Part shown: positions 3,935 to 61,458 of the stretch, piece after piece | Layout of the letters: the number at the start of each line of letters is the position of its first letter | Numbering within the stretch: the stretch's first letter is position 1 | Source of the DNA: Eledone cirrhosa | Lineage: Eukaryota | Assembly: GCA_964016885.1 (NCBI GenBank) | Contig: OZ024742.1 | Span: forward strand, 1,240,001 to 1,304,000 | Length of the DNA stretch: 64,000 nt | Reading direction: 5' to 3' | Position numbers and translations under genes: made by a program | Notes under the pieces: model-generated | What the model saw: the letters and a program-made list of their open reading frames with translations, nothing else | The model's database searches: none | Told to the model about the DNA's origin: nothing

Positions 3935-4191
3935 AGCGTGGAAAAGCCGAATGTAAAGATGATAATAATGTATTCAACCAATAAACAGTGAGTTGTTAAA
4001 AGTGTCTGGTGTGAGAGACCAAGAAGAATGTGTTGTCAGCTGATCTATTTGTTGAGAAGAGCAAATTATTGGGGATTAACAATTTAACAGATCAAAACAT
4101 TGTTTCACATTTACATGTCTGTTGTTGTTCTACATGAAATGAGAAACTAGTTTATATTTTACTCTCAGTTTCAATGTTGATAATAGTTCTA

Positions 4192-7100: not shown

Positions 7101-10100
7101 GTAGTGTGGTGTTGTGGTGTAGTGTGGTGTATTGTAGTGTGGTGGTGTGGTGTATTGTGGTGTTGTGGTGTAGTGTGGTGTTGTGATGTAGTGTGGTGTT
7201 GTGGTGTATTGTAGTGTGGTGTATTGTAGTGTGGTGTATTGTAGTGTGGTGTTGTGGTGTAGTGTGGTGTTGTGTGTAGTGTGGTGTTGTGGTGTAGTGT
7301 GGTGTTGTGGTGTAGTGTGGTGTTGTGGTGTATTGTAGTGTGGTGGTGTGGTGTAGTGTGGTGTTGTGGTGTATTGTAGTGTGGTGTTGTAGTGTAGTAT
7401 AGTGTGGTGTTGTAGTGTAGTATAGTGTGGTGGTGTAGTGTGGTGTTGTGGTGTATTGTAGTGTTGTGGTGTAGTGTGGTGTTGTGGTGTATTGTAGTGT
7501 TGTGGTGTATTGTAGTGTGGTGGTGTAGTGTGGTGTTGTGGTGTAGTGTGTGGTGGTGTGTGGCTTGTAGTGTTGTGGTGGTGTGTGGTTTGTAGTGTTG
7601 TTGTGGTGTGTTGTGCTGTGTGGTGGTGTAGTGTTGTGGTGTGTTGTAGTGTGGTCTGTTGTGGTGGTGTGTTGTAATGTAGTGTGGTGGTGGTGTGTTG
7701 TGTTGTAGTGTAGTGTGGTGTAGTGTGGTGTTGTGGTGTAGTGTGGTGTGGTGGTGTAGTGTGGTGTGGTGGTGTAGTGTGGTGTAGTGTGGTGTAGTGT
7801 GGTGGTGTATTGTGGTGTTGTGTGTAGTGTGGTGTTGTGGTGTAGTGTGGTGTTGTGGTGTAGTGTGGTGTTGTGGTGTAGTGTGGTGTTGTGGTGTAGT
7901 GTGGTGTTGTGTGGTGTGGTGTGGTGTTGTGGTGTAGTGTGGTGTTGTGGTGTAGTGTGGTGTATTGTAGTGTGGTGTATTGTAGGGTGGTGTATTGTGG
8001 TGTTGTGGTGTATTGTGGTGTCGTGGTGTAGTGTGGTGTTGTGGTGTAGTGTGGTGTATTGTAGTGTGGTGGTGTGGTGTATTGTGGTGTTGTGGTGTAG
8101 TGTGGTGTTGTGATGTAGTGTGGTGTTGTGGTGTAGTGTGGTGTTGTGGTGTATTGTAGTGTGGTGTATTGTAGTGTGGTGGTGTGGTGTAGTGTGGTGT
8201 TGTGGTGTAGTGTGGTGTTGTGATGTACTGTGGTGTTGTGGTGTAGTGTGGTGTTGTGGTGTAGTGTGGTGTTGTGGTGTATTGTAGTGTGGTGTATTGT
8301 AGTGTGGTGGTGTGGTGTAGTGTGGTGTTGTGTGTAGTGTGGTGTTGTGGTGTAGTGTGGTGTTGTGGTGTAATGTGGTGGTGTGGTGTAGTGTGGTGGT
8401 GTGGTGTAGTGTGGTGGTGTGGTGTAGTGTGGTGTTGTGGTGTGGTGTAGTGTGGTGCTGTGGTGTAGTGTGGTGTTGTGGTGTATTGTAGTGTGGTGTT
8501 GTAGTGTAGTATAGTGTGGTGTTGTAGTGTAGTATAGTGTGGTGGTGTAGTGTGGTATAGTGTGGTGGTGTAGTGTGGTATAGTGTGGTGGTGTAGTGTG
8601 GTGTTGTGGTGTATTGTAGTGTTGTGGTGTAGTGTGGTGTTGTGGTGTATTGTAGTGTTGTGGTGTATTGTAGTGTGGTGGTGTAGTGTGGTGTTGTGTT
8701 GTGGTGGTGTGTGGTTTGTAGTGTTGTTGTGGTGTGTTGTGCTGTGTGGTGGTGTAGTGTTGTGGTGTGTTGTAGTGTGGTCTGTTGTGGTGGTGTGTTG
8801 TAATGTAGTGTGGTGGTGGTGTGTGGTGTGGTGTGTTGTAGTGTAGTGTGGTGTGGTGTGGTGGTGTGTTGTAATGTAGTGTGGTGTGTAGTGTGGTGCT
8901 GTAGTGTAGTGTGGTGTTGTGGTGTAGTGTGGTGTTGTGGTGTAGTGTGGTGTTGTGGTGTAGTGTGGTGTTGTGGTGTAGTGTGGTGTTGTGGTGTAGT
9001 GTGGTGTTGTGGTGTAGTGTGGTGTTGTGGTGTAGTGTGGTGTTTGTGGTGTATTGTGGTGTTGTGTAGTGTGGTGTTGTGGTGTAGTGTGGTGTATTGT
9101 AGTGTGGTGGTGTGGTGTATTGTGATGTAGTGTGGTGTTGTGGTGTAGTGTGGTGTTGTGGTGTATTGTAGTGTGGTGTATTGTAGTGTGGTGGTGTGGT
9201 GTAGTGTGGTGTTGTGTGTAGTGTGGTGTTGTGGTGTAGTGTGGTGTTGTGGTGTAGTGTGGTGTTGTGGTGTAATGTGGTGGTGTGGTGTAGTGTGGTG
9301 TTGTGGTGTAGTGTGGTGTTGTGGTGTAGTGTGGTGTTGTGGTGTATTGTAGTGTGGTGGTGTGGTGTAGTGTGGTGTTGTGGTGTATTGTAGTGTGGTG
9401 TTGTAGTGTAGTATAGTGTGGTGTTGTAGTGTAGTATAGTGTGGTGGTGTAGTGTGGTGTTGTGGTGTATTGTAGTGTTGTGGTGTAGTGTGGTGTTGTG
9501 GTGTATTGTAGTGTTGTGGTGTATTGTAGTGTGGTGGTGTAGTGTGGTGTTGTGGTGTAGTGTTGTGGTGGTGTGTGGTTTGTAGTGTTGTGGTGGTGTG
9601 TTGTGCTGTGTGGTGGTGTAGTGTTGTGGTGTGTTGTAGTGTGGTCTGTTGTGGTGGTGTGTTGTAATGTAGTGTGGTGGTGGTGTGTTGTGTTGTAGTG
9701 TAGTGTGGTGTGGTGGTGTGTTGTAATGTAGTGTGGTGTGTAGTGTGGTGCTGTAGTGTAGTGTGGTGTTGTGGTGTGTTGTGGTGTAGTGTGGTGTTGT
9801 GGTGTGTTGTGGTGTAGTGTGGTGTATTGTAGTGTGGTGTTGTGGTGTAGTGTGGTGTTGTGGTGTAGTGTGGTGTTGTGGTGTAGTGTGGTGTTGTGGT
9901 GTAGTGTGGTGTTGTGGTGTAGTGTGGTGTTGTGGTGTAGTGTGGTGTTGTGGTGTAGTGTGGTGTGGTGGTGTAGTGTGGTGTGGTGGTGTAGTGTGGT
10001 GTGGTGGTGTAGTGTGGTGTTGTGGTGTAGTGTGGTGTTGTGGTGTAGTGTGGTGTTGTGGTGTAGTGTGGTGTTGTGTGGTGTAGTGTGGTGGTGTAGT

Positions 10101-13100
10101 GTGGTGTTGTGGTGGTGTTGTGGTGTAGTGTGGTGTTGTGGTGTAGTGCGGTGTTGTGGTGTAGTGTGGTATGGTGGTGTAGTGTGGTGTTGTGGTGTAG
10201 TGTGGTGTAGTGTGGTGTTGTGGTGTAGTGTGGTGTAGTGTGGTGTTGTGGTGTAGTGTGGTGTTGTGGTGTAGTGTGGTGTATTGTGGTGTTGTGGTGT
10301 AGTGTGGTGTTGTGGTGTAGTGTGGTGTTGTGGTGTAGTGTGGTGTTGTGGTGTAGTGTGGTGTATTGTAGTGTGGTGGTGTGGTGTATTGTGGTGTTGT
10401 GGTGTAGTGTGGTGTTGTGGTGTAGTGTGGTGTTGTGGTGTAGTGTGGTGTAGTGTGGTGTTGTGGTGTAGTGTGGTGTAGTGTGGTGTTGTGGTGTAGT
10501 GTGGTGTGGTGGTGTAGTTTGGTGTGGTGGTGTAGTGTGGTGTAGTGTGGTGTAGTGTGGTGTTGTGGTGTATTGTGGTGTTGTGTGTAGTGTGGTGTTG
10601 TGGTGTAGTGTGGTGTTGTGGTGTAGTGTGGTGTTGTGGTGTAGTGTGGTGTTGTGGTGTAGTGTGGTGTTGTGTTGTGGTGTAGTGTGGTGTTGTGGTG
10701 TAGTGTGGTGTATTGTAGTGTGGTGTATTGTAGGGTGGTGTATTGTGGTGTTGTGGTGTATTGTGGTGTCGTGGTGTAGTGTGGTGTTGTGGTGTAGTGT
10801 GGTGTATTGTAGTGTGGTGGTGTGGTGTATTGTGGTGTTGTGGTGTAGTGTGGTGTTGTGATGTAGTGTGGTGTTGTGGTGTAGTGTGGTGTTGTGGTGT
10901 AGTGTGGTGTTGTGGTGTATTGTAGTGTGGTGTATTGTAGTGTGGTGGTGTGGTGTAGTGTGGTGTTGTGGTGTAGTGTGGTGTTGTGATGTACTGTGGT
11001 GTTGTGGTGTAGTGTGGTGTTGTGGTGTAGTGTGGTGTTGTGGTGTATTGTAGTGTGGTGTATTGTAGTGTGGTGGTGTGGTGTAGTGTGGTGTTGTGTG
11101 TAGTGTGGTGTTGTGGTGTAGTGTGGTGTTGTGGTGTAGTGTGGTGTTGTGGTGTAATGTGGTGGTGTGGTGTAGTGTGGTGGTGTGGTGTAGTGTGGTG
11201 GTGTGGTGTAGTGTGGTGTTGTGGTGTGGTGTAGTGTGGTGCTGTGGTGTATTGTAGTGTGGTGTTGTAGTGTAGTATAGTGTGGTGTTGTAGTGTAGTA
11301 TAGTGTGGTGGTGTAGTGTGGTATAGTGTGGTGGTGTAGTGTGGTGTTGTGGTGTATTGTAGTGTGGTGTTGTAGTGTAGTATAGTGTGGTGTTGTAGTG
11401 TAGTATAGTGTGGTGGTGTAGTGTGGTATAGTGTGGTGGTGTAGTGTGGTGTTGTGGTGTATTGTAGTGTTGTGGTGTAGTGTGGTGTTGTGGTGTATTG
11501 TAGTGTTGTGGTGTATTGTAGTGTGGTGGTGTAGTGTGGTGTTGTGTTGTGGTGGTGTGTGGTTTGTAGTGTTGTTGTGGTGTGTTGTGCTGTGTGGTGG
11601 TGTAGTGTTGTGGTGTGTTGTAGTGTGGTCTGTTGTGGTGGTGTGTTGTAATGTAGTGTGGTGGTGGTGTGTGGTGTGGTGTGTTGTAGTGTAGTGTGGT
11701 GTGTTGTAGTGTAGTGTGGTGTGGTGTGGTGGTGTGTTGTAATGTAGTGTGGTGTGTAGTGTGGTGCTGTAGTGTAGTGTGGTGTTGTGGTGTAGTGTGG
11801 TGTTGTGGTGTAGTGTGGTGTTGTGGTGTAGTGTGGTGTTGTGGTGTAGTGTGGTGTTGTGGTGTAGTGTGGTGTTGTGGTGTAGTGTGGTGTTGTGGTG
11901 TAGTGTGGTGTTTGTGGTGTATTGTGGTGTTGTGTAGTGTGGTGTTGTGGTGTAGTGTGGTGTATAGTAGTGTGGTGGTGTGGTGTATTGTGATGTAGTG
12001 TGGTGTTGTGGTGTAGTGTGGTGTTGTGGTGTATTGTAGTGTGGTGTATTGTAGTGTGGTGGTGTGGTGTAGTGTGGTGTTGTGTGTAGTGTGGTGTTGT
12101 GGTGTAGTGTGGTGTTGTGGTGTAGTGTGGTGTTGTGGTGTAATGTGGTGGTGTGGTGTAGTGTGGTGTTGTGGTGTAGTGTGGTGTTGTGGTGTAGTGT
12201 GGTGTTGTGGTGTATTGTAGTGTGGTGGTGTGGTGTAGTGTGGTGTTGTGGTGTATTGTAGTGTGGTGTTGTAGTGTAGTATAGTGTGGTGTTGTAGTGT
12301 AGTATAGTGTGGTGGTGTAGTGTGGTGTTGTGGTGTATTGTAGTGTTGTGGTGTAGTGTGGTGTTGTGGTGTATTGTAGTGTTGTGGTGTATTGTAGTGT
12401 GGTGGTGTAGTGTGGTGTTGTGGTGTAGTGTTGTGGTGGTGTGTGGTTTGTAGTGTTGTGGTGGTGTGTGGTTTGTAGTGTTGTTGTGGTGTGTTGTGCT
12501 GTGTGGTGGTGTAGTGTTGTGGTGTGTTGTAGTGTGGTCTGTTGTGGTGGTGTGTTGTAATGTAGTGTGGTGGTGGTGTGTTGTGTTGTAGTGTAGTGTG
12601 GTGTGGTGGTGTGTTGTAATGTAGTGTGGTGTGTAGTGTGGTGCTGTAGTGTAGTGTGGTGTAGTGTGGTGTTGTGGTGTAGTGTGGTGTTGTGGTGTAG
12701 TGTGGTGTTGTGGTGTAGTGTGGTGTTGTGGTGTAGTGTGGTGTTGTGGTGTAGTGTGGTGTTGTGGTGTAGTGTGGTGTTGTGGTGTAGTGTGGTGTGG
12801 TGGAGTAGTGTGGTGTGGTGGTGTAGTGTGGTGTGGTGGTGTAGTGTGGTGTTGTGGTGTAGTGTGGTGTTTGTGGTGTATTGTGGTGTTGTGGTGTAGT
12901 GTGGTGTTGTGGTGTAGTGTGGTGTTGTGGTGTAGTGTGGTGTTGTGTGGTGTAGTGTGGTGGTGTAGTGTGGTGTTGTGGTGGTGTTGTGGTGTAGTGT
13001 GGTGTTGTGGTGTAGTGTGGTGTTGTGGTGTAGTGTGGTGTTGTGGTGTAGTGTGGTGTTGTGGTGTAGTGTGGTGTTGTGGTGTAGTGTGGTGTTGTGT

Positions 13101-16100
13101 GGTGTAGTGTGGTGTTGTGGTGTAGTGTGGTGTTGTGGTGTAGTGTGGTGTATTGTGGTGTTGTGGTGTAGTGTGGTGTTGTGGTGTAGTGTGGTGTTGT
13201 GGTGTAGTGTGGTGTATTGTAGTGTGGTGGTGTGGTGTATTGTGGTGTTGTGGTGTAGTGTGGTGTTGTGGTGTAGTGTGGTGTAGTGTGGTGTTGTGGT
13301 GTAGTGTGGTGTAGTGTGGTGTTGTGGTGTATTGTAGTGTGGTGTATTGTAGTGTGGTGGTGTGGTGTAGTGTGGTGTTGTGGTGTAGTGTGGTGTTGTG
13401 GTGTATTGTAGTGTGGTGTTGTAGTGTAGTATAGTGTGGTGGTGTAGTGTGGTGTTGTGGTGTATTGTAGTGTTGTGGTGTAGTGTGGTGTTGTGGTGTA
13501 GTGTGGTGTTGTGTTGTGGTGTAGTGTGGTGCTGTGGTGTAGTATGGTGTTGTGGTGTAGTGTGGTGTTGTGGTGTATTGTAGTGTGGTGGTGTAGTGTG
13601 GTGTTGTGGTGTATTGTAGTGTGGTGGTGTATTGTAGTGTGGTGGTGTAGTGTGGTGTTGTGTTGTGGTGTAGTGTGGTGCTGTGGTGTAGTGTGGTGTT
13701 GTGGTGTAGTGTGGTGTTGTGGTGTATTGTAGTGTGGTGGTGTAGTGTGGTGTTGTGGTGTATTGTAGTGTGGTGGTGTAGTGTGGTGGTGTGGTGTAGT
13801 GTGGTGTTGTGGTGTAGCGTGGTGTATTGTAGTGTGGTGGTGTGGTGTAGTGTGGTGTTGTGGTGTATTGTAGTGTGGTGGTGTGATGTATTGTAGTGTG
13901 GTGTATTGTAGTGTGGTGGTGTGGTGTTGTAGTGTAGTATAGTGTGGTGGTGTAGTGTGGTGTTGTGGTGTAGTGTAGTGTTGTGGTGTAGTGTGGTGTT
14001 GTGGTGTAGTGTGGTGTTGTAGTGTATTGTAGTGTTGTGGTGTAGTGTGGTGTTGTGGTGTAGTGTGGTGTTGTAGTGTATTGTAGTGTGGTGGTGTAGT
14101 GTGGTGTTGTGTTGTGGTGTAGTGTGGTGTTGTGGTGTAGTGTGGTGTTGTGGTGTAGTGTGGTGTTGTGGTGTAGTGTGGTATTGTGGTGTAGTGTGGT
14201 GTTGTGGTGTAGTGTGGTGTTGTGGTGTAGTGTGGTGTTGTGGTGTAGTGTGGTGTTGTGGTGTATTGTAGTGTGGTGGTGCAGTGTGGTGTTGTGGTGT
14301 AGTGTGGTGGTGTGGTGTAGTGTGGTGTTGTGGTGTATTGTAGTGTGGTGGTGTAGTGTGGTGTTGTGGTGTAGTGTGGTGTAGTGTGGTGTTGTGGTGT
14401 AGTGTGGTGTTGTGGTGTAGTGTGGTGTTGTGGTGTAGTGTGGTGTTGTGGTGTATTGTAGTGTGGTGTATTGTAGTGTGGTGGTGTGGTGTAGTGTGGT
14501 GTAGTGTGGTGTTGTGGTGTATTGTAGTGTGGTGTGGTCTGGTGTTGTGGTGTAGTGTAGTGTGGTGTTGTGGTGTAGTCTGGTGTTGTGGTGTAGTGTA
14601 GTGTGGTGTTGTGGTGTAGTGTGGTGTTGTGGTGTAGTGTGGTGTTGTGGTGTAGTGCGGTGTTGTGGTGTGGTGTTGTGGTGTATTGTGGTGTTGTGGT
14701 GTAGTGTGGTGTTGTGGTGTAGTGTGGTGTTGTGGTGTAGTGTGGTGTTGTGGTGTATTGTAGTGTGGTGTATTGTAGTGTGGTGTTGTGGTGTAGTCTG
14801 GTGTTGTGGTGTAGTGTGGTGTTGTGTGGTGTTGTGGTGTAGTGTGGTGTTGTGTGGTGTTGTGGTGTAGTGTGGTGTTGTGGTGTAGTGTGGTGTTGTG
14901 TGGTGTTGTGGTGTAGTGTGGTGTTGTGGTGTTGTGTGGTGTTGTGGTGTAGTGTGGTGTTGTGTGGTGTAGTGTGGTGTTGTGGTGTAGTGTGGTGTTG
15001 TGGTGTAGTGTGGTGTTGTGGTGTAGTGTGGTGTTGTGGTGTAGTGTGGTGTTGTGGTGTAGTGTGGTGTTGTGGTGTAGTGTGGTGTAGTGTGGTGGTG
15101 TAGTGTGGTGTTGTGGTGTAGTGGTGTAGTGTGGTGTGGTGGTGTAGTGTGGTGTTGTGGTGTAGTGTGGTGTTGTGGTGTAGTGTGGTGTTGTGGTGTA
15201 GTGTGGTGTTGTGGTGTATTGTAGTGTGGTGTATTGTAGTGTGGTGTTGTGGTGTAGTGTGGTGTTGTGTGGTGTAGTGTTGTGGTGTAGTGTGGTGGTG
15301 TAGTGTGGTGTTGTGGTGTAGTGTGGTGTTGTGGTGTAGTGTTGTGTTGTGGTGTAGTGTGGTGTTGTGTGGTGTAGTGTGGTGTTGTGGTGTAGTGTGG
15401 TGTTGTGGTGTAGTGTGGTGTTGTGGTGTAGTGTAGTGTGGTGTTGTGGTGTAGTGTGGTGTTGTGGTGTAGTGTGGTGTATTGTGGTGTTGTGGTGTAG
15501 TGTGGTGTTGTGGTGTAGTGTGGTGTTGTGGTGTAGTGTGGTGTTGTGGTGTAGTGTGGTGTTGTGGTGTAGTGTGGTGTATTGTAGTGTGGTGGTGTGG
15601 TGTATTGTGGTGTTGTGGTGTAGTGTGGTGTTGTGGTGTAGTGTGGTGTTGTGGTGTATTGTAGTGTGGTGTATTGTAGTGTGGTGGTGTGGTGTAGTGT
15701 GGTGTTGTGTGTAGTGTGGTGTTGTGTGTAGTGTGGTGTTGTGGTGTAGTGTGGTGTTGTGGTGTAGTGTGGTGTTGTGGTGTAATGTGGTGGTGTGGTG
15801 TAGTGTGGTGTTGTGGTGTAGTGTGGTGTTGTGGTGTAGTGTGGTGGTGTGGTGTAGTGTGGTGTTGTGGTGTGTGGTGGTGTGGTGTAGTGTGTTGTTG
15901 TGGTGTATTGTAGTGTGGTGTTGTAGTGTAGTATAGTGTGGTGGTGTAGTGTGGTGTTGTGGTGTATTGTAGTTTTGTGGTGTAGTGTGGTGTTGTGGTG
16001 TATTGTAGTGTTGTGGTGTATTGTAGTGTGGTGGTGTAGTGTGGTGTTGTGTTGTGGTGTAGTGTGGTGCTGTGGTGTAGTGTGGTGTTGTGGTGTAGTG

Positions 16101-17345
16101 TGGTGTTGTGGTGTATTGTAGTGTGGTGGTGTAGTGTGGTGTTGTGTTGTGGTGTAGTGTGGTGCTGTGGTGTAGTGTGGTGTTGTGGTGTAGTGTGGTG
16201 TTGTGGTGTAGTGTGGTGTTGTGGTGTATTGTAGTGTGGTGTTGTGGTGTATTGTAGTGTGGTGGTGTAGTGTGGTGGTGTGGTGTAGTGTGGTGTTGTA
16301 GTGTAGTATAGTGTTGTGGTGTAGTATAGTTTTGTGGTGTAGTGTGGTGGTGTATTGTAGTGTGGTGTAGTGTGGTGTTGTAGTGTAGTATAGTGTTGTG
16401 GTGTAGTGTGGTGGTGTATTGTAGTGTGGTGGTGTGGTAGTGTAGTATAGTATGGTGGTGTAGTGTGGTGTTGTGGTGTATTGTAGTGTGGTGGTGTAGC
16501 GTGGTGGTGTATTGTAGTGTAGTGTAGTATAGTGTGGTAGTGTAGTATAGTGTTGTGGTGTAGTGTGGTGGTGTAGTGTGGTGTTGTGTAGTGTTGTAGT
16601 GTATTGTAGTGTGGTGGAGTGTGTTGTAGTGTAGTATAGTGTGGTGGTGTAGTGTGGTGTTGTGGTGTATTGTAGTGTTGTAGTGTATTGTAGTGTGGTG
16701 GTGCGGTGTGGTGTTGTAGTGTAGTATAGTGTGGTGGTGTAGTGTGGTGTTGTGGTGTATTGTAGTGTTGTAGTGTATTGTAGTGTGGTGGTGTGGTGTT
16801 GTAATGTAGTATAGTGTGGTGGTGTAGTGTGGTGTTGTGGCGTATTGTAGTGTTGTAGTGTGGTGGTGTGGTGTTGTAGTGTAGTATAGTGTGGTGGTGT
16901 AGTGTGGTGTTGTGGTGTATTGTAGTGTTGTAGTGTGGTGGTGTGGTGTTGCAGTGTAGTATAGTGTGGTGGTGTAGTGTGGTGTTGTGGTGTATTGTAG
17001 TGTTGTAGTGTATTGTAGTGTGGTGGTGTGTGTTGTAGTGTAGTATAGGGTGGTGGTGTAGTGTGGTGTTGTGGTGTATTGTAGTGTTGTAGTGTATTGT
17101 AGTGTGGTGGTGTGGTGTTGTAGTGTAGTATAGTGTGGTGGTGTTGTGGTGTAGTGTGGTGGTGTGGTGTATTGTAGTGTTGTAGTGTATTGTAGTGTGG
17201 TGGTGTGGTGTTGTAGTGTAGTATAGTGTGGTGGTGTAGTGTGGTGTTGTGGTGTAGTATAGTGTGGTAGTGTAGTATAGTGTTGTAGTGTAGTATAGTG
17301 TTGTGGTGTAGTGTGGTGTTGTGGTGTATTGTAGTGTTGTAGTGT
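4192..17345 (+). repeat. 13-kb complex GT-rich satellite; 15-bp unit GTAGTGTAGTGTGTT at left, dominant 18-bp unit GTGTAGTGTGGTGTTGTG, higher-order blocks
   Basis: Almost no C on + strand; built from GTGTA/GTGTG/GTGTT/GTG modules. Confidence 0.97.
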
Positions 17346-17382
17346 ATATAATACGTGTATTATTATACATGTATGTATATAA

Positions 17383-17567
17383 TTGTTTCTACTTTAGGCA
17401 CAAGGCCAGCAATTACCCAGTATATTACTGGTACTTTATTTTATCGACCCCGTAAGGATGAAAGGCAAAGTTAACCTCGGCGGGATTTGAACTGAGATCA
17501 TAAAGGGACGTAACTCTATGCTTCAAAGCATGGTGTCCGACTCTACCGATACTGCCAATCCACCGTT
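17383..17567 (-). mobile_element. tRNA-derived SINE (MetaSINE-like)
   Basis: Homologous to 570-746. Confidence 0.8.
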
Positions 17568-39129: not shown

Positions 39130-39514
39130 CATATATGTATGTACGTATACACACATACATTTAAGTAAGTGCCGTACTAGGAGTGAGAAATGAAATTTTG
39201 TTTTCATTTTATTTCAACTTATATATACATATATATACATATACATATACATACATATATATATACATATATATACATATATATATACATATATATACAT
39301 ATATATATATATACACATATATATACATATATATATACATACACATATATATACATATATATATACATATATATACACATATATATACATATATATACAC
39401 ATATATATACATATATATACATATATATATATACATATACATATATACATATACATATATATATATACATATACATATACATATATACATATACATATAC
39501 ATATATACATATAC

Positions 39515-40225: not shown

Positions 40226-40385
40226 CATATCTATACATATATATATATACATATATATGTAGGAGGTGAGTTTTATTGTAGAACAATAAAGCAATGCAGA
40301 TATCGGATAAGAAGCACTCTACAGTTTGTAGGACTGGAGTATACATAATATATAAGATCAAAAGATGGTTAAAGGAGTTCCATGT

Positions 40386-40454
40386 ATTTTATTATGTGCA
40401 TTTCAAAAACAAACATCATCATGCAATAATATTTGTGTTTTCATCAGATAAAAC
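40386..40454 (-). ncRNA. Type-I hammerhead (mirror copy)
   Basis: gttttat-CTGATGA-long stem II-GAAA-tgcaca-TA^-ataaaat. Confidence 0.7.
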
Positions 40455-40576
40455 AGGAGAACATGATATGAAGGCTAAAAAACACTTGTGGATATTGCAG
40501 TTTTAAATCAACATATATGTTGATTTATAACTGCACTATCCACAAGTGTTTTTTAGCCTTCATATCATGTTCTCCT

Positions 40577-40645
40577 GTTTTATCTGATGAAAACACAAAT
40601 ATTATTGCATGATGATGTTTGTTTTTGAAATGCGCATAATAAAAT
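40577..40645 (+). ncRNA. Type-I hammerhead ribozyme
   Basis: gttttat-CTGATGA-aaacacaaatattatt-gcat-gatgatgtttgttttt-GAAA-tgcgca-TA^-ataaaat. Confidence 0.8.
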
Positions 40646-40707
40646 ACATGGAACTCCTTTAACCATCTTTTGATCTTATATATTTTATACATATATATAT
40701 ATATACA

Positions 40708-43700
40708 TATCATCATCATCACCGTTTTACGTCCGTTCTTCCACGCTAGCATGGGTTAGACGGGTTGTCCTGTTGTGGGCAGTGTCTGGTCGGCTGACCA
40801 TGCCTTGCTCATACAGGAACTGATCTGGCTTGATTTCTACAGCTGGATGCCCTTCCTAACACCAACCTCATTTACAGTGAGTGCTGGGTGCTTTTTCGTG
40901 GCGCCTACACGTCCACTTTACAGTGTGGGCTGGGTGCTTTTTTGCCGTGGCACCTCCACGACCACCTTGCGGTGGGGGGGGGGGCATATTGTTTATATGC
41001 TTCAGCATGTACCCATGGGAGGTCGGGTACCCTGTATTACTGTGTGACGCCAGAAGTCACGGTCGTGTGTCATTGACTTTGAGAGGTGTAGTTGGGTAAG
41101 GTCGGCTTTTATCACCTCATCCCAAGTCATCTTGGGTCTCCCCACTCCGCGGTTTCCATCAACTTCTAGTGCTCTGCACCTTTTTATGCAGCTGTCATCC
41201 TTCATACGCATCACATGTCCATACCAGCGTAACCGCCTCTCCTGCACGCAGCATTTGATTCCTCTTATGCTCAGTCTCTCTCTCAATTCCCTTATGCTTT
41301 GTCGTTCACGTATATTACTGTTACACATCCATCGGAGCATGCAGGCTTCGTTTCTCTCTAATCTACGTAAGTCTTCCACCTTCAGCGCCCAGGTCTCACT
41401 ACCATGCAACATCGCTGTTCGGATACACGCATCATACAGTCTGCCTTTCATTCTGAGGGAGAAGCCTTTTGCAGCTAGCAGTGGTAGTAGTTCCCTAAAC
41501 TTCTTCCATCCCGTTCTTACCCTAGTTATTGTACTTTCTGAGCACCCACCTCCGTTGCTAATTCGGTCACCTAGGTAGCAGAAGCTGTCTACTGTTTCTA
41601 CAGGGCCCTCCCAGAGATTGGTGGTACTTGTTTCCTGTGGCTGTTTGCTTGCTGTTTCAGCACAGCTGCTGCATGTGAATCCTACATTCTTAATTAAGCT
41701 TCCTGAGATCCCGCTACATCTCTTGTGTACCCATTGTTTGCATTTGGGGCAAAGAATGGAGTTCCTACCTACACCTTTCCTACATACTGAGCAAGGCCAT
41801 TTCCCTGAGGGGATCTGGGTTCTGTTTTCTCGTCTACTTATAAGGACCTTAGTCTTTGTCATGTTGACTTTGAGGCCCTTTCTCTCTAGTCCCTGCTTCC
41901 AGGTTTGGAATTTATTCTCTAGTTCTACCATAGATTCAGCTATGAGTGCGAGGTCATCAGCATACAGGAGTTCCCATGGGCATCCGGTCTTAAACTCCTC
42001 CGTTATTGCCTGCAGGACTATGATGAACAGGAGAGGGCTAAGAACAGAGCCCTGGTGGACCCCAACCTGTACGCTAAATTCCTCGCTATACTCATTGCCA
42101 ATCCTAACTTTGCTGACTGCTCCCCTATACATGGCTTGTACCGCTTTCACAAGCCATTCATCTACTCCTAGTTTTCTAAGAGCCCACCAGATTACTGCAC
42201 GTGGAACTCTGTCAAAGGCTTTCTCAAGGTCGACAAATGCCAAGTAGAGTGGCTTACTTTTAGCTAGGTACTTTTCCTGTAATTGCCTCACAAGGAAGAG
42301 CGCATCAGTGGTGCCTTTCCCTGGTACAAACCCAAATTGCATCTCGTCTATATTCACCCGGTCCCTAATCAGCTGTGCTATAACTCTTTCTGTTACTTTC
42401 ATGACCTGGTCCATCAACTTTATACCTCTATAGTTTCCTCTATCTAGTGCATCGCCTTTACCTTTGTAGCAGTTGACAATGATGCTACTGCACCAATCTT
42501 TTGGTATGGCCCCCTCTAGTATTACCTGGTTAACGATACGTGTGGTTATAGTGTGACCTACAGACCCAGATGCCTTCAGCATCTCGGCAGCTATACCCGA
42601 TGGACCGGTTGCCTTCCCTATCTTCATATCTCTGATTGCCTTACTTACTACGCTGCCGCTGACTTGTACTGCTGGTCCCTCTATAGGGTCTACGTGGGGT
42701 AGGGTCTCTTCTTCCCATGCATTCTCCTCATTTAGTAATCTATCATAATGACTCTTCCATGCATCTTTCTTCTCAGCACTTGTGAGGGCAAGCTCACCTT
42801 TATCATTCCGGATACACTTCTCTCCAATGACATCACAACTATCTCTGACACACTGCCTCGCAATCTTGAATACCTCCTGTTTCTGGTCCTCACGTTGTAA
42901 AACATGCTTGAATTTTCTATCCTCTGCTTCCCTCCTAGCTAAGTATACTTGTCGCCTAGCTTCCCTCTTGGTCTCTATGTAATGTACCCTGCTCCCCCCG
43001 TTCTTCCATTCTTTCCATGCCTGTCTCTTGGCCTTGACTGCTTCATCTACCTTATTGTTCCACCACCAAGTCACTCTCCTCCTGCTTGAGGTCTTACTCC
43101 AGCCACAAACCTCATCCGTCGCCTCTAGTAAGTTATTTTTTAGGAACTCCCAGTTCTCTTCTACGTTAAATGTCTCTATCTGTTCTTCTTTACTGTCGTA
43201 GGCGTTGAGTAAAATATCTTTAAATCTGTTACTGGTTGAGGGGACTTTCAGCTTCCAGATCTTTCTTCTCCAGGTTGGCCTCTGTTTCAGGGCTCGTCTA
43301 GTTCTGACCGTGAGGTCGCTGACAACTAAGCTATGTTGGGATGTACATTCCTCACTAGGGAAGGCTTTTGTGTTTACGACCGTCCATCTGTCACGTCCTC
43401 TGATGAGGATAAAATCTAACTGACTAGAGTGCTCCCCTGATCTATAGGTGATCAGGTGGTTGTCGGGTTTTTTAAAGTTTGTGTTACATATCGACATGTC
43501 ATTGGCGTCGCAGAATTCTAGAAGTCTGAATCCTTCCTCATTCCTTGTGCCAACTCCATGGCCTCCATGTACTCTATTGAAGCCGTCGCAGTGTTTACCT
43601 ACGTGTCCGTTAAAATCTCCTGCAATGATTAGGAAGTCCTTGTCGTCTGTTAGAGCAGTAGTGTGTATTAGGGACTCGTAAAACCTATCCTTAAGTTCGT

Positions 43701-44106
43701 CTGGCAGCCCCGATTGGGGTGCGTAAGCTGATATTATTGTGGTAATTGTCTTATTCAGGACTAGTCTGAGTTTAATGATTCTTGCATTTACCCTGTACAC
43801 TGAGATTACTTTATCTACCCACTTGTCAGCTAATAGTATACCTACACCACCCATCCCATCGTCATTTCCCACCCAGAAAAATTTGTAGCACTGGCTTTTT
43901 CCTACAAGGACTCTAGCAGACCCTCCTCTCCATCTAGTCTCTTGCACACAGCATACATCAACTTCCTTTCGCTCTAGCATTTCTACGATTTCTCCTGCTC
44001 TTCCTTTCATTGAGCCTACATTGATGGTACCAACTCGGAGTTTTGGGCATTTGTCGACACTCGTAGGGGAGGGTCTCTGGGTTGGCGCTTCACGTGGGTG
44101 CTTGGT
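40708..44106 (-). mobile_element. Near full-length RTE-clade LINE, subfamily B
   Basis: APE+RT ORF, 3' UTR, (GAT)n tail; 5' end runs into (TA)n. Confidence 0.95.
41002..44106 (-). CDS. RTE polyprotein: APE endonuclease + reverse transcriptase + PHD-like finger (~1030 aa open, native start probably truncated; first internal ATG 44010)
   Basis: GTINV, VQETRW, SAYAPQ, AGDFNGH, LDFIL, SQHSLV (APE); NYRGI, QFGF, FVDLEKAFD, QGSVLSP, YADD, FCYLG (RT); no stops. Confidence 0.93.
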   Translation of the reverse strand, partial: TKHPREAPTQRPSPTSVDKCPKLRVGTINVGSMKGRAGEIVEMLERKEVDVCCVQETRWRGGSARVLVGKSQCYKFFWVGNDDGMGGVGILLADKWVDKVISVYRVNARIIKLRLVLNKTITTIISAYAPQSGLPDELKDRFYESLIHTTALTDDKDFLIIAGDFNGHVGKHCDGFNRVHGGHGVGTRNEEGFRLLEFCDANDMSICNTNFKKPDNHLITYRSGEHSSQLDFILIRGRDRWTVVNTKAFPSEECTSQHSLVVSDLTVRTRRALKQRPTWRRKIWKLKVPSTSNRFKDILLNAYDSKEEQIETFNVEENWEFLKNNLLEATDEVCGWSKTSSRRRVTWWWNNKVDEAVKAKRQAWKEWKNGGSRVHYIETKREARRQVYLARREAEDRKFKHVLQREDQKQEVFKIARQCVRDSCDVIGEKCIRNDKGELALTSAEKKDAWKSHYDRLLNEENAWEEETLPHVDPIEGPAVQVSGSVVSKAIRDMKIGKATGPSGIAAEMLKASGSVGHTITTRIVNQVILEGAIPKDWCSSIIVNCYKGKGDALDRGNYRGIKLMDQVMKVTERVIAQLIRDRVNIDEMQFGFVPGKGTTDALFLVRQLQEKYLAKSKPLYLAFVDLEKAFDRVPRAVIWWALRKLGVDEWLVKAVQAMYRGAVSKVRIGNEYSEEFSVQVGVHQGSVLSPLLFIIVLQAITEEFKTGCPWELLYADDLALIAESMVELENKFQTWKQGLERKGLKVNMTKTKVLISRRENRTQIPSGKWPCSVCRKGVGRNSILCPKCKQWVHKRCSGISGSLIKNVGFTCSSCAETASKQPQETSTTNLWEGPVETVDSFCYLGDRISNGGGCSESTITRVRTGWKKFRELLPLLAAKGFSLRMKGRLYDACIRTAMLHGSETWALKVEDLRRLERNEACMLRWMCNSNIRERQSIRELRERLSIRGIKCCVQERRLRWYGHVMRMKDDSCIKRCRALEVDGNRGVGRPKMTWDEVIKADLTQLHLSKSMTHDRDFWRHTVIQGTRPPMGTC

Positions 44107-44149
44107 ATATACATATATATACATATATATACATATATATATATACATA

Positions 44150-44340
44150 TACGTAGGTCACGGGTTGAGTCGGGGATAACCACAGTAAGTAAGGTACTCA
44201 ATACATGGCAGAGTAAAATTTTTTATTTTATGGAAGGAGCTTCTACAGCACTAGTACTCTTTCATTCTGTGCTTCCTGAAGATTTCATCTGAATGAAACA
44301 GTACTAGTCCTGTAGAAGCTCCTTCTATAAAATAAAAAAT
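44150..44340. mobile_element. Short fold-back hammerhead element
   Basis: Inverted arms ~44218-44267 / 44291-44340; (TA)n flanks. Confidence 0.7.
44271..44319 (+). ncRNA. Type-I hammerhead ribozyme
   Basis: gcttc-CTGAAGA-tttc-atct-gaat-GAAA-cag-tactagtc-ctg-TA^-gaagc. Confidence 0.72.
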
Positions 44341-46301: not shown

Positions 46302-46804
46302 AAGCAGAACAAGCAAAATTCAACCAATTTTTTAAAATAAATTAAAAAATATAATTTAAATATTTACCTATTCATATGGCTCTTACCGATCGGTTTCGCC
46401 TTGTAAAACACCAGAGACCCAATGGATTTCTAATGGAAAATCAAGGCTCAGCAGAGAAACATTTTCCCTTCCTAGGACTAAAGACCCAGGAACGATAAAA
46501 TATATTGTTATCTGCCAGCTAGCACAGATCCAAAAGGCCGAAAAATGACCTGTACGTGAACTACCCGAGGTGAAAGCGGGAAAAACATAGACGTGTTGTC
46601 TATCTCGTTACTAAAAATAGCAGCTAAATAGAATCAACATGATTGTTCTCAACAAATGGAGGGTGATAGAAGAAGTTAGTAAGCCCATGGGTACTAAGTA
46701 CCCCTGGAAATACATAGGTTGTCTATGATTTAAGGTTGTTCTATGGTATCAAGACAACCTATGTATTTCCAGGGGTACTTAGTACCCACGGGCTTACTAA
46801 CTTC
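46302..46804 (-). mobile_element. pLTR-like element with hammerhead and terminal ~50-bp hairpin (46672-46804)
   Basis: Between TA tracts; GAAGTTAGTAAGCCC..GGTTGTCT / AGACAACC..GGGCTTACTAACTTC. Confidence 0.65.
46381..46457 (-). ncRNA. Hammerhead motif (CTGCTGA variant)
   Basis: tct-CTGCTGA-gccttg..caaggc-GAAA-ccgatcgg-TA^-aga. Confidence 0.6.
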
Positions 46805-47024
46805 TATATATACATATATATATATATACATATATATACATATATATAATATACATATATATACATATATATAATATACATATATATACATATATATAAT
46901 ATACATATATATACATATATATATACATATATATACATATATATATACATATACATATATATACATATATATATACATATATATACATATATATATACAT
47001 ATACATATATATACATATATATAC

Positions 47025-47071
<47 letters not shown>

Positions 47072-47124
47072 CATATATATACATATACATATATATATAT
47101 ATACATATATATACATATATATAC

Positions 47125-47155
<31 letters not shown>

Positions 47156-47979
47156 CATATATATACATATACATATATATACATATACATATATATACAT
47201 ATATATATATACATATACATATATATACATATATATATATACATATATATACATATATATAAATACATATATATACATATATATAATATACATATATATA
47301 CATATATATACATATACATATATACATATACATATATATATATAATATACATATATATACATATATATACATATACATATATATACATATATATACATAT
47401 ATATACACATATATATCATATATATATACATATATATATACATATATATATCATATATATATACATATATATCATATATATATACATATATATCATATAT
47501 ATATACATATATATATCATATATATATACATATATATCATATATATATACATATATATATACATATATATATACATATATATACATATATATACATATAT
47601 ATCATATATATATACATATATATACATATATATCATATATATATACATATATATATACATATATATCATATATATATACATATATATACATATATATCAT
47701 ATATATATACATATATATATACATATATATCATATATATATACATATATATACATATATATATACATATATATACATATATATCATATATATATACATAT
47801 ATATACATATATATCATATATATATACATATATATATACATATATATATACATATATATCATATATATATACATATATATATACATATATATACATATAT
47901 ATATACATATATATATACATATATATACATATATATACATATATATACACATATATATATATATATATACATATATATA
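46805..47979. repeat. Interrupted (TA)n with TAATA and TATC variants
   Basis: Direct. Confidence 0.95.
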
Positions 47980-48621
47980 TAAAAACAAATAACGAAACGA
48001 AATTAAATTTTGTTTCGTTTGTAACTCACTTTTGTATGACTGACTCTTAAACAATTAAGTTAAAAATGTACATCCACATATGTACACGTGTGTGTATTCA
48101 TATGCATACTAGTATTTCAGTATACATATGTGGATGTACATTTTTAACTTAATTGTTTAAGTTTAAGTCATACAAAAGTGAGTTACAAACGAAACAAAAT
48201 TTAATTTCGTTTCGTTATTTGTTTTTATCGTCTCCGTTGAACCGGTACGTACTCACGCTCTATGCAAATTGGTCTGCCCACTACTAATTTTCATAGAAAA
48301 AGCATATAACGATATGTGCTTTCACGATTCTCTAGAAAGGCCGGAAGATAGGTAAATATTGCTGATGAGATGTAACAACATCGAAACTAGTCCAATATTC
48401 CTTGTCTGGCTTTCTGAAGAATAGAGGAAAGGTGTTTCCTCAAAAACCAGTATGACTCTAAAAACCGGTTTGTCTGTGTGTTTACATACAGAATAGCTGG
48501 ACACTCACAGTAAAGTAACCAGTGAAAAACTCGGTACATCTACATATGTACACGTGTGTGTATTCATATGCATACTAGTATTTCAGTATACATATGTGGA
48601 TGTACATTTTTAACTTAATTG
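47980..48621 (+). mobile_element. Retrozyme-like element: 466-nt monomer with ~80-nt terminal direct redundancy plus inverted 5' arm
   Basis: 48076-48155 repeated at 48542-48621; 47980-48084 inverted relative to 48123-48228. Confidence 0.8.
48355..48399 (+). ncRNA. Canonical minimal type-I hammerhead ribozyme
   Basis: aatattg-CTGATGA-gatg-taacaa-catc-GAAA-ctag-TC^-caatatt; perfect stems I and II. Confidence 0.9.
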
Positions 48622-48664
48622 CATATATATATACATATAGATATATATATATACATATATATAT

Positions 48665-49335
48665 TAAACGAACTAAGGAAAAAATTAGAAATAAGAGGGA
48701 TCAGATGATGTTTACTCGAGAGAAGGCTACGTTGGTATGGTCACGTGATGCGCATGAAAGACGACAGCTGTATAACAAGGTGCAGGGCAATAAAGATAGA
48801 CGGTAGCTACGGAGTAGGCAGACCCAGAAAAACATGGGACGAGCTGATAAATTCCGACCTCACACACTTACACCTCTCCAAGACAATGTCACTGGACCGA
48901 GACCTTTGGCGGTACTCAGTAATAAAGACCCGCCTTACCTAAATACATAGTAAAACCTACTACAGTTAGTAGGCATCTCTATCAAAACACCCCCCGTCCC
49001 ACCACCTCCACCCCATCCACACCGCCCCTTTCAATGTAAAGTTATGTTGGTCCCACAACATCCAGGCCGAAACAAATGAGATCGTGTAGGTGTCACGACA
49101 AAAAAACACACAGTCCACGCTGTAATGTGGTCGTGTAGGCAACACGGTAAAAACCTCCCAGCCCCACACTGTAAATGTGGTTGGTGTTAGGAAGGGCATC
49201 CAACTGTAGAAAACCCTGCCAGATAGTCCTATGCGAGCAAGACAATTACTCTTGCCTCAAGTGGGAAAACCCCCGTCCAAACCCATGCAAGCGTGGAACA
49301 CGGACGCTAAACCTGATGATGATGGTGATGATGAT
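48665..49335 (+). mobile_element. RTE subfamily A 3' fragment
   Basis: RT C-terminal remnant, 3' UTR, (GAT)n. Confidence 0.92.

Positions 49336-50123: not shown

Positions 50124-50164
<41 letters not shown>
49336..50164. repeat. Interrupted (TA)n microsatellite
   Basis: Direct. Confidence 0.95.
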
Positions 50165-50168
<4 letters not shown>

Positions 50169-50282
50169 TTGAAAAAAATGAAAACGAAATTTCATTTCTC
50201 ACTCTTAGTATGGCACTTACTTAAATGTAAGTATGTATGTATACGTACATACATATATGTATACAGACGTACAGTAGCAAGC

Positions 50283-50313
<31 letters not shown>

Positions 50314-50901
50314 TATATACACATATGCATACAGGTACACATACATATATGCACGCATCAGTTTAGCCTACGTTTATTATAACGCCGGCCGCTTTGTTCG
50401 TTTGTTTGTCAACAAAGCGAACAGCCTGAATTTATGCCATACGGTGTTAAGGCAACCACGTCACCTTTTTGTTCAACACTGACACAGGAACGATGTACAC
50501 ATTTAAGTAAGTGCCATACTAAGAGTGAGAAATGAAATTTCGTTTTCATTTTTTTCAACTTATCGTTTTCGGTATGCCTGACCGATTTAACTCACTCTAT
50601 ATGCAAAGTAGGCTGCTCAGCCGTTAATTTTCATAAGGAAAGTATATACTTTCGAACGTTCAACTATCTGGCAGATGGGTAAACGGTGCTGATGATAGCT
50701 AACAAGCTTGAAACTAGTACATCGTTCCTGTGTCAGTGTTGAACAAAAAGGTGACGTGGTTGCCTTAACACCGTATGGCATAAATTCAGGCTGTTCGCTT
50801 TGTTGACAAACAAACGAACAAAGCGGCCGGCGTTATAATAAACGTAGGCTAAACTGATGCGTGCATATATGTATGTGTACCTGTATGCATATGTGTATAT
50901 A

Positions 50902-50934
<33 letters not shown>

Positions 50935-50990
50935 GCTTGCTACTGTACGTCTGTATACATATATGTATGTACGTATACATACATACTTAC

Positions 50991-50992
<2 letters not shown>
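50165..50992 (+). mobile_element. Retrozyme-like element: ~490-nt monomer (50499-50992) plus inverted, circularly permuted copy (50165-50498)
   Basis: Left arm reverse complement = 50717-50992 followed by 50503-50562. Confidence 0.85.
50682..50726 (+). ncRNA. Minimal type-I hammerhead ribozyme
   Basis: aacggtg-CTGATGA-tagc-taacaa-gctt-GAAA-ctag-TA^-catcgtt. Confidence 0.85.
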
Positions 50993-51037
<45 letters not shown>

Positions 51038-51076
51038 TGAAGTATAAGAATCAAAGAACTGTTCAAAACATTATTG

Positions 51077-51123
51077 TGCTTACAGCTGTTTCCTCCAAAC
51101 CGAGGTTTGGATTCTTCGGAGCA
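51077..51123 (-). ncRNA. Hammerhead motif (mirror of 51908)
   Basis: Reverse complement of 51908-51954. Confidence 0.65.
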
Positions 51124-51907
51124 ATTTATTAATGCATGGACAGTTATATGACCTCCTTTTCAGCCGAGAGACATACCAATACATATTCAAACATTGATAC
51201 ATATTCAAACATTGTGGGTCAACATTCATTACAGAATTTAGAGTGGCAGTACACACTTCGAGATTACATTTATATTAATAGGTACAATCAAAAATCAAAG
51301 ATATAGGTTAAAGTACAACATGAAGATAAGTGGTTATATAGTGCAAATGTTATATGTGTGGCACGCATGTGCGTCTTGTTTATATAGTGTGGCAGAGAGA
51401 TATGTGTGGTAGAGGCACTTAGGTAGGTAAATAAGAGTGTTAGGTTGGTAGATCTGGTGGCAAAGTCTTTATATGATTGATATAGTCTGTGTGTGGAGAA
51501 ATATTATAAGCATTAAAGATAGTGCAAGCATTAAAAGTGTTATAAGTATTGGAGATGCACAGCGCAGGGATGTCAAGATCTACCAACCTAACACTCTTAT
51601 TTACCTACCTAAGTGCCTCTACCACACATATCTCTCTGCCACACTATATAAACAAGACGCACATGCGTGCCACACATATAACATTTGCACTATATAACCA
51701 CTTATCTTCATGTTGTACTTTAACCTATATCTTTGATTTTTGATTGTACCTATTAATATAAATGTAATCTCGAAGTGTGTACTGCCACTCTAAATTCTGT
51801 AATGAATGTTGACCCACAATGTTTGAATATGTATCAATGTTTGAATATGTATTGGTATGTCTCTCGGCTGAAAAGGAGGTCATATAACTGTCCATGCATT
51901 AATAAAT

Positions 51908-51954
51908 TGCTCCGAAGAATCCAAACCTCGGTTTGGAGGAAACAGCTGTAAGCA
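51908..51954 (+). ncRNA. Hammerhead motif (CCGAAGA variant)
   Basis: tgct-CCGAAGA-atccaaacc-tc-ggtttggag-GAAA-cagctg-TA^-agca. Confidence 0.68.
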
Positions 51955-52158
51955 CAATAATGTTTTGAACAGTTCTTTGATTCTTATACTTCATATAACT
52001 GCTCTGTAAATCATCTGATGTTTTTACATTGAGCTACTTAACTTACTGGTAATAAGGTAGTAATACATCACTGCCTACCACTATTTAGGGTGTGTGTAAA
52101 ATACTTACAACTGCTTAAGGTTTTGTGTTTACATAACCATAAATAGTATAACTAATAC

Positions 52159-58229: not shown

Positions 58230-58274
<45 letters not shown>

Positions 58275-58283
<9 letters not shown>

Positions 58284-58456
58284 AGATCAAAAGATGGTTA
58301 AAAGAGTTCCATGTATTTTATTATGCGCATTTCAAAAACAAATATCATCATGCAATAACATTTGCGTTTTCGTCAGATAAAATAGGGAGACATGATATGA
58401 AGGTTAAAACACACTTGTGAATAGTGCAGTTTTAAATCAACATAAAACTCACCTCC

Positions 58457-58460
<4 letters not shown>
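58275..58460 (-). mobile_element. Family F hammerhead element with short inverted arm
   Basis: Homologous to 40345-40515; 58443-58460 is the inverted 3' end. Confidence 0.75.
58315..58383 (-). ncRNA. Type-I hammerhead ribozyme
   Basis: attttat-CTGACGA-long stem II-GAAA-tgcgca-TA^-ataaaat. Confidence 0.78.
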
Positions 58461-58498
<38 letters not shown>

Positions 58499-60704: not shown

Positions 60705-60757
60705 ATTTTATTATACATATTTCAGAGGTACAACAGTACGTCCTCATCAGATAAAAT
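60705..60757 (-). ncRNA. Type-I hammerhead in Penelope pLTR
   Basis: attttat-CTGATGA-ggacgtac-tgtt-gtacctct-GAAA-tatgta-TA^-ataaaat. Confidence 0.78.
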
Positions 60758-61154: not shown

Positions 61155-61458
61155 TCAATTAGAGATTCTATTGGATACTCCCTTAGAGATAGAGTTTAAT
61201 ATTGATCTAGGGTGGTTAGATTTGGTATCTACGTAAATGAGTTTTTCGTTAGGTTTATGGAAAGGTGTATATATCTTTGAGTCTAGGTAGAGGGTGGCGT
61301 CCAGGAAGTTAACGTTTTTAGTGTTTTTGTCCATGGTGATACTAAGGTTATAGTTTTTGAATGTCTTGTGCAATAGTTTTCTAGTTCTTTCTATATTGAA
61401 TTTTTTATAGTCTATAAGTAGAAGTGCATCATCGCGGTACAAACCATAATCTTATATA
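61155..61458 (-). pseudogene. Penelope-like element reverse transcriptase fragment
   Basis: YGLYRDD, VNFLDATL, PFHKPN..YVDTKSNHP: PLE RT palm/thumb motifs. Confidence 0.85.

Follow-up and report, generated by a model that had tools for sequence, protein, structure and literature searches.

Animal non-LTR retrozymes are tandem repeats whose unit spans some hundreds of bases, has no ORF, is low in GC and carries one type I hammerhead. They run from monomers to long multimers and co-occur with Penelope-like elements, and circles, rolling-circle copying and Penelope mobilisation have already been proposed for them in the accessible parts of two reports (PMC7229834; bioRxiv 10.64898/2026.07.22.740005). 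Most animal type I hammerheads, according to the available text of PMC4209133, have a short palindromic helix III and act as dimers. Insertions of endonuclease-bearing Penelope-like elements, as described in the accessible portions of three papers (PMC8557442, PMC3846280, PMC11167929), comprise a head-to-head inverted, 5'-truncated copy, a tail that is often present at one end only, and a bias toward (TA)n; the same sources describe a hammerhead with a short palindromic helix III and two internal start sites that bound the tail.

The element studied here, designated family A, resembles animal non-LTR retrozymes in its short head-to-tail unit of 466 nt, found in arrays of up to about 20, in its lack of protein coding, in its GC content of 0.35 (the class limit is below 45%), and in the type I hammerhead motif of each unit, here predicted from sequence and secondary structure. 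The available text of the retrozyme papers shows expression, cleavage and circles in other species. Head-to-head arms, two fixed ends and a TA target are features of family A that were not found in the accessible retrozyme literature (PMC7229834; bioRxiv 10.64898/2026.07.22.740005). They do recall insertions of endonuclease-bearing Penelope elements: a head-to-head inverted, 5'-truncated copy occurs in at least 39 of 60 family A insertions, the tail is one-sided without exception in the 39 of 39 that are resolved, and the target is (TA)n. The tail itself, 69-74 nt, is longer than the 30-40 nt given in the accessible parts of the Penelope papers (PMC8557442, PMC3846280, PMC11167929). Unlike autonomous Penelope-like elements, the family A unit has no reverse transcriptase (RT) or GIY-YIG ORF. 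The element is an animal non-LTR retrozyme, a known class, with the known Penelope footprint of a one-sided tail.

Twin priming of LINE-1 also has both target strands prime and yields head-to-head arms joined at short homologies, with a variable second priming site and arms that cover mostly separate parts of the RNA. In family A, by contrast, both sites are fixed and the arms overlap over whole units. Non-overlapping twin priming of the LINE-1 type was considered and rejected, the 5' end of the P1 arm (sites defined below) lying near P2 in 4 of 39 insertions, with 3.4 expected.

The insertion at 47979-48621, its hammerhead and its sister family

Within the window, that is, the whole 64-kb stretch of DNA analysed, positions 47979-48621 read as two head-to-head arms set between the TA-rich microsatellites that served as target (46800-47978 on the left, 48622-48666 on the right). 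The short inverted arm (47979-48067, minus strand) mirrors 48140-48228, with 86 of 89 bases matching, and its outer end, the RNA's 3' end, falls at P1, the downstream fixed site (TTAT, unit position 161). The long arm (48068-48621, plus strand) measures 554 nt, or 1.19 units, from a random 5' end to an outer end at the upstream fixed site P2, here unit position 88. It contains one 466-nt repeat unit (48068-48533, plus strand; 35% GC), which is tandem at other loci and whose longest stop-free frame, measured on the tripled unit, is 60 codons, after which the unit's first 88 nt are traversed again (48534-48621, plus strand); the resulting direct repeat, 48068-48155 and 48534-48621, is identical at 87 of 88 positions with a spacing of 466. 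Between P2 (48154-48159) and P1 (48228) lies the tail (48155-48228, plus strand), with predicted stem-loops and a loop motif, AATTTCGTTT, common to family A and its sister family B. Because the junction of the arms sits in a long internal hairpin (48060-48148, plus strand; z = -8.5 against shuffles), up to 17 extra bases can be assigned to either arm.

The preliminary description of this locus spoke of a terminally redundant monomer with an 80-nt direct repeat around a hammerhead. The repeat is there, at a measured length of 88 nt rather than 80. As a defining feature the redundancy is not supported: it follows incidentally from an arm of 554 nt whose 5' end is random, and in other copies the arms run from about 50 to about 7,300 nt. 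The 48-kb copy belongs to a tandem family and is an insertion truncated at random at its 5' end, one random outcome rather than a defined monomer; it holds a single ribozyme and is unable to excise a monomer.

The type I hammerhead motif occupies 48355-48399 on the plus strand (AATATTG-CTGATGA-GATG-TAACAA-CATC-GAAA-CTAG-TC/CAATATT), with a helix I of 7 bp, a helix II of 4 bp with loop UAACAA, a helix III of 2 bp and the palindrome ACUAGU; cleavage is predicted after GUC at 48392. It had been called a perfect hammerhead. The core and three helices are indeed present, but helix III has only 2 bp, closed by a loop of 2 nt, the isolated motif at its predicted energy minimum does not adopt the active hammerhead fold, and Rfam returned no match at gathering score anywhere in the 64-kb window. 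In the sister element at 50.5 kb, the counterpart's helix II is mismatched (U-U) at its base. As earlier reported, and as read in both sequences, the stems of the two elements differ with pairing kept, while loop TAACAA and CTAG are conserved.

Covariation across genomic copies, proposed earlier as a check, bears the motif out, the hammerhead being conserved under covariation in helices I and II. In a set of 13 variants, hand-picked from related families of this one genome, 7 of 13 pairs are changed on both sides and 90.5% of cells pair, as against at most 46% when partners are slid; since the variants are mutually related, they do not amount to 13 independent covariation events. Helix II shows one more compensatory change, in locus L168 and in sequencing runs X1, X5 and X6. 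Substitutions number 0.65 per 100 nt in the ribozyme and 1.38 across the whole unit. In one subfamily GUU replaces the GUC cleavage triplet (48392); it accounts for six of the 60 insertions, L012 and L168 among them, and GUU predominates in three of four runs (X1, X5, X6), partly alongside the compensatory change in helix II.

At 50.5 kb lies a family B insertion (50164-50992, unit about 490 nt, hammerhead 50682-50726), with an inverted arm that ends at its TTAT site (50164-50498) and a forward arm that ends at its upstream site (50499-50992). Its description as a diverged sister holds: the units of the two families are identical at 268 of 441 aligned positions (61%), the local score of 271 exceeds every one of 300 shuffles (mean 119, maximum 148, TA-rich hairpins excluded), and the stem changes are compensatory. 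The TTAT ends noted previously at 47979, 50164/5 and 39222 are real, but the last closes a short plus-strand fragment of family B (39157-39222, ending at the TTAT site before (TA)n) rather than an inverted arm. Across the 3.0-Gb genome, exact ribozyme cores number 1,630 for family A and 10,651 for family B, with none for reversed controls. Exact family A cores are spaced by the unit length in arrays of up to about 20 units; the best-ranked copies are 97-99% identical, often tandem with 466-nt spacing, and older subfamilies are present at 87-95% identity. The inverted arm at 50.5 kb stops (50498) within 3 nt of the predicted ribozyme cut (50717-50720); the pile-up of 5' ends at the cut that this stop brought to mind was not seen in family A (6 of 106). 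Adjoining the family B element is a perfect 422-nt inverted repeat with a 120-nt spacer (51034-51997).

Fixed outer ends and shared haplotypes of paired arms

Ends were mapped in 60 family A insertions from 61 loci, which had been selected for similarity or because their ribozyme core is intact; L076, where a divergent long array shows no end inside the locus, was kept out of the end counts. The loci contain 114 arm 3' ends, of which 90 adjoin TA-rich sequence, and 89 of these 90 fall at just two sites, 44 at P1 (TTAT, unit position 161, window 48228) and 45 at P2 (positions 87-92, window 48154-48159), which bound a tail of 69-74 nt. The preliminary description had named TTAT|CG as a preferred priming site. 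As a fixed end it is well supported, with 41 of the 90 TA-abutting ends exactly there and 1,663 exact P1-TA junctions genome-wide; its use for priming is suggested by analogy with the enzyme described in the accessible text of PMC11167929. That description lacked the second fixed site, at the other end of the insertion (48621). Each site serves one arm. Among the 60 insertions, 39, all head-to-head, have both outer ends at a fixed site, and every one of the 39 pairs one P1 with one P2, an outcome with a probability of 2e-12 if the sites were independent and equally likely. The other 21 are single-armed, joined to other sequence, or have a partner arm too short or rearranged for alignment. The complementary site was recognised by eye in L070, L084 and L021. 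In L089, an inverted piece of P2 type, 25 nt long, sits next to a P2 arm; the piece does not adjoin TA, and the locus is excluded from the 39.

The pairing recurs in loci selected by other means. Forty new loci, chosen without regard to the ribozyme from among the P1-TA junction matches listed, contain no P1/P1 pair; BLAST finds a P2 partner arm in 23 (two of them apparently one segmental duplicate), a very short P2 arm is seen by eye in three, five run off the stretch, five are single-armed and four are other cases. Among 33 family B loci, 13 are P1/P2 and one is P1/P1, the others being single-armed or having ends that do not resolve. The exception, L053 (324-2929), is the sole TTAT/TTAT pair seen in family B, and its arms differ in haplotype, with 18 mismatches and 9 gaps; six family B P1/P2 cases have 0-2 mismatches between arms. 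P2 ends are scattered over positions 87, 89 and 92, whereas P1 ends are not. Target-site duplications are unreadable in a (TA)n target; a 12-bp repeat flanks L082, a copy that lies outside TA. In run X1, possibly the source sample, 12 contigs exit at 48228 into (TA)n.

Partner arms share a haplotype. They have 133 non-majority bases in common, against a mean of 19.7 and a maximum of 44 in 5,000 permutations; 32 of the 133 are private to one insertion, 20 of those coming from the divergent locus L062. Discordance between arms is 0.38 per 100 nt, as against 1.94, and common markers agree between arms in 89 of 94 cases and disagree in five. In 48 insertions with at least three passes, 121 variants stay constant throughout, over as many as 19 passes; 225 variants occur once, 23 recur in one arm and six occur in both arms unfixed. 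The 29 variants present in several but not all units, some of them regularly spaced (L069, L100), indicate either that arrays also change after insertion or that some templates were heterogeneous multimers. Periodic variants were considered as proof of multimeric circles and rejected as such, the spacing being irregular (L100) or mixed (L069) and one-arm cases outnumbering two-arm cases, 23 to six. The shared haplotype is compatible with one molecule, with two transcripts of one locus, with a circle or with a homogeneous linear array. Because the haplotype is fixed over all units, a bottleneck of one unit followed by re-multiplication is needed. Rolling-circle copying gives both, but the same pattern can be imitated by later duplication or by a linear array that is homogeneous.

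The 5' ends behave differently from the 3' ends. They are uniform along the unit (KS p 0.35), and six of 106 lie within 10 nt of the ribozyme cut, with 4.8 expected, in a sample partly selected for an intact core; arms read through the cut site 201 times. The 5' ends of partner arms are unrelated, lying within 20 nt of each other in two of 39 insertions (KS p 0.87); in 23 of 39 the arm without a tail exceeds its partner in length. Arm junctions, approximated from alignment ends, show overlaps of 1-4 nt in 19 cases, no overlap in three, overlaps of 7-17 nt in five and added bases in 12. The overlap at 47979-48621 is 17 nt, supplied by the internal hairpin.

Penelope-like families and other features of the window

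No autonomous partner with a family A or B terminus was found among three abundant Penelope-like families, with frames of 821, 713 and 887 codons; several further Penelope-like families were seen as fragments only, and the comparison of termini covered the three abundant ones. Pfam gave no match for two ORF fragments. The 821-codon frame resembles RT and GIY-YIG-bearing clusters in Atlas. Its family has fixed ends used one site per arm in L143, L144, L145 and L149 and at window 58.3-58.5 kb, and L138, with the upstream site at both ends, is its single same-site case. Terminal repeats of this family (window 40249-40690 and 58274-58461; L141-L150; 61,424 first-look candidates) have a hammerhead-like motif with a long helix II and two fixed ends of their own. 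A simple pattern search found no standard hammerhead core in the flanks of L152 and L179, of the 713- and 887-codon families. At L157:2155-5173 and L089:5883-7995, family A arms are joined directly to pieces of the 821-codon family ORF. These joins are possible chimeric insertions or template switches and could point to the mobilising enzyme; they are a lead only, because the 821-codon family is so abundant.

The window contains four or more additional hammerhead-like motifs that belong to other families, with candidates at 297, 19734, 33768 (minus strand), 53247 (minus strand), 60750 (minus strand) and 44276; downstream of a fragment of a Penelope-like ORF (61158-61445, minus strand) comes the one at 60750. 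An uninterrupted LINE frame of 1,051 codons with endonuclease and RT motifs (41002-44157, minus strand), which we take to be RTE-like, has many truncated relatives in the window. A simple satellite of 13 kb with extreme strand skew (GC skew about 0.99) extends from about 4150 to 17400.

Proposed insertion mechanism and its alternatives

Any model has to accommodate fixed ends used one per arm, a common haplotype, unrelated random 5' ends, ribozyme read-through and a TA target. A Penelope-type RT-endonuclease probably cut both strands of (TA)n and primed both on the same RNA, once per site. Tandem arrays would be transcribed, and adjacent ribozymes, acting as dimers by way of the ACUAGU palindrome, would cut and free monomers that may circularise, as the accessible accounts of related systems suggest (PMC4209133, PMC7229834). 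The enzyme would then bind the stem-loops of the tail and begin two cDNAs, one from P1 and the other from P2, priming of this kind being suggested by the available text of PMC11167929. Both cDNAs would pass the ribozyme site and halt at unrelated random places, matching the end distributions observed, and their ends would be joined, mostly through 1-4 nt of overlap or a few added bases, by a presumed repair route. The outcome would be a head-to-head insertion with the tail on one side only.

The biochemistry reported in the accessible parts of PMC11167929 bears on this proposal in both directions. The Penelope enzyme, a predicted dimer, cuts and extends both strands in vitro, favours AT-rich DNA and initiates at two internal sites, which form the boundaries of the tail; by analogy, the fixed ends of family A would be RT start sites and both target strands would prime. 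The same source saw no difference in start site between the two strands and found ribozyme cleavage dispensable in vitro, both of which count against the model; unprocessed RNA was the main substrate there. Within the genome, the one-site-per-arm ends of the 821-codon family speak for the model, and the five discordant common markers, the longer tail, the same-site case L138 and the unrelated termini of the three abundant Penelope-like families speak against it. That the template was a circle is suggested less firmly than that the fixed ends are start sites. A more specific version, which we advance tentatively, has a dimeric Penelope-type enzyme on one circular 466-nt RNA, one active site at each end of the tail, copying round from both sides. 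The pair of same-site arms with two haplotypes at L053 is what this version predicts for events involving two RNAs. Runs X4 and X6 each contain one contig that closes on itself over 466 nt; a tandem array yields the same, and neither was counted as a circle.

The alternatives differ in which step they replace. Both strands might have been primed at TTAT, with the tail later removed from one arm by an endonuclease and P2 marking the cut. This accounts equally well for the strict P1/P2 pairing, the spread of P2 ends fits a cut site, and endonuclease resolution has been offered as the cause of the one-sided tail (PMC8557442, in its accessible text). We judge it unlikely all the same: both tail boundaries were mapped as RT starts in vitro in the available part of PMC11167929, P2 arms adjoin (TA)n as cleanly as P1 arms, and the P2 spread coincides with TA/AT-like unit positions, so that it may reflect alignment ambiguity or microhomology priming. 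A quite different substitution concerns the template, which could have been an uncut linear multimer transcribed from a homogeneous array, with no circle and with the ribozyme idle in insertion. Such a template would alter only the freeing and circularising of monomers and is compatible with double priming. The indifference of 5' ends to the ribozyme cut argues for it, as do the unit-specific variants that recur in some arrays, the status of unprocessed RNA as chief substrate in vitro (PMC11167929, accessible text) and the finding, in the available text of bioRxiv 10.64898/2026.07.22.740005, that eight of nine frog retrozyme dimers were uncleaved. Many distinct haplotypes, each fixed over all units and both arms, nevertheless call for repeated passage through one unit and then re-multiplication, and the ribozyme is less substituted than the unit (0.65 against 1.38 per 100 nt) with stems that covary between families. 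We therefore hold the linear template to be possible but short of probable.

Other explanations dispense with the second priming event or with retrotransposition altogether. An inverted arm could arise by fold-back and self-priming at an internal hairpin, or by later inversion or conversion at the DNA level; shared haplotypes would follow, the junction at 48 kb does lie in a strong hairpin with 17 nt of overlap, and self-priming has been proposed for palindromic junctions in the accessible text of PMC3846280. Because a copy of the first strand can neither outgrow its template nor acquire a tail, the unrelated 5' ends of partners (within 20 nt in two of 39) and the greater length of the tail-less arm in 23 of 39 make this origin very improbable. 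Spread of a satellite by DNA-level amplification, its hammerhead a relic or a product of chance, would suit the long arrays and their signs of later duplication, yet the insertions are dispersed and contain inversions, with 3' ends that are fixed and 5' ends that are random, all marks of retrotransposition, and helices I and II of the hammerhead covary; we give this explanation almost no credence.

Double priming on one RNA, once per site, thus remains the reading we prefer. Strict pairing of one site per arm and the shared-haplotype test were not found in the literature searched, a body mostly without subscription and older Penelope papers. The large set of young insertions makes the inverted arms and one-sided tails of Penelope testable, and the pairing, the shared template, the unrelated 5' ends and the ribozyme read-through narrow the models and argue against fold-back self-priming. 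If true, the rule of a dimer on a circle would explain three oddities of Penelope elements, namely head-to-head inversion, the one-sided tail and tandems of more than one unit. The insertion record also backs the proposed borrowing of Penelope enzymes by animal retrozymes.
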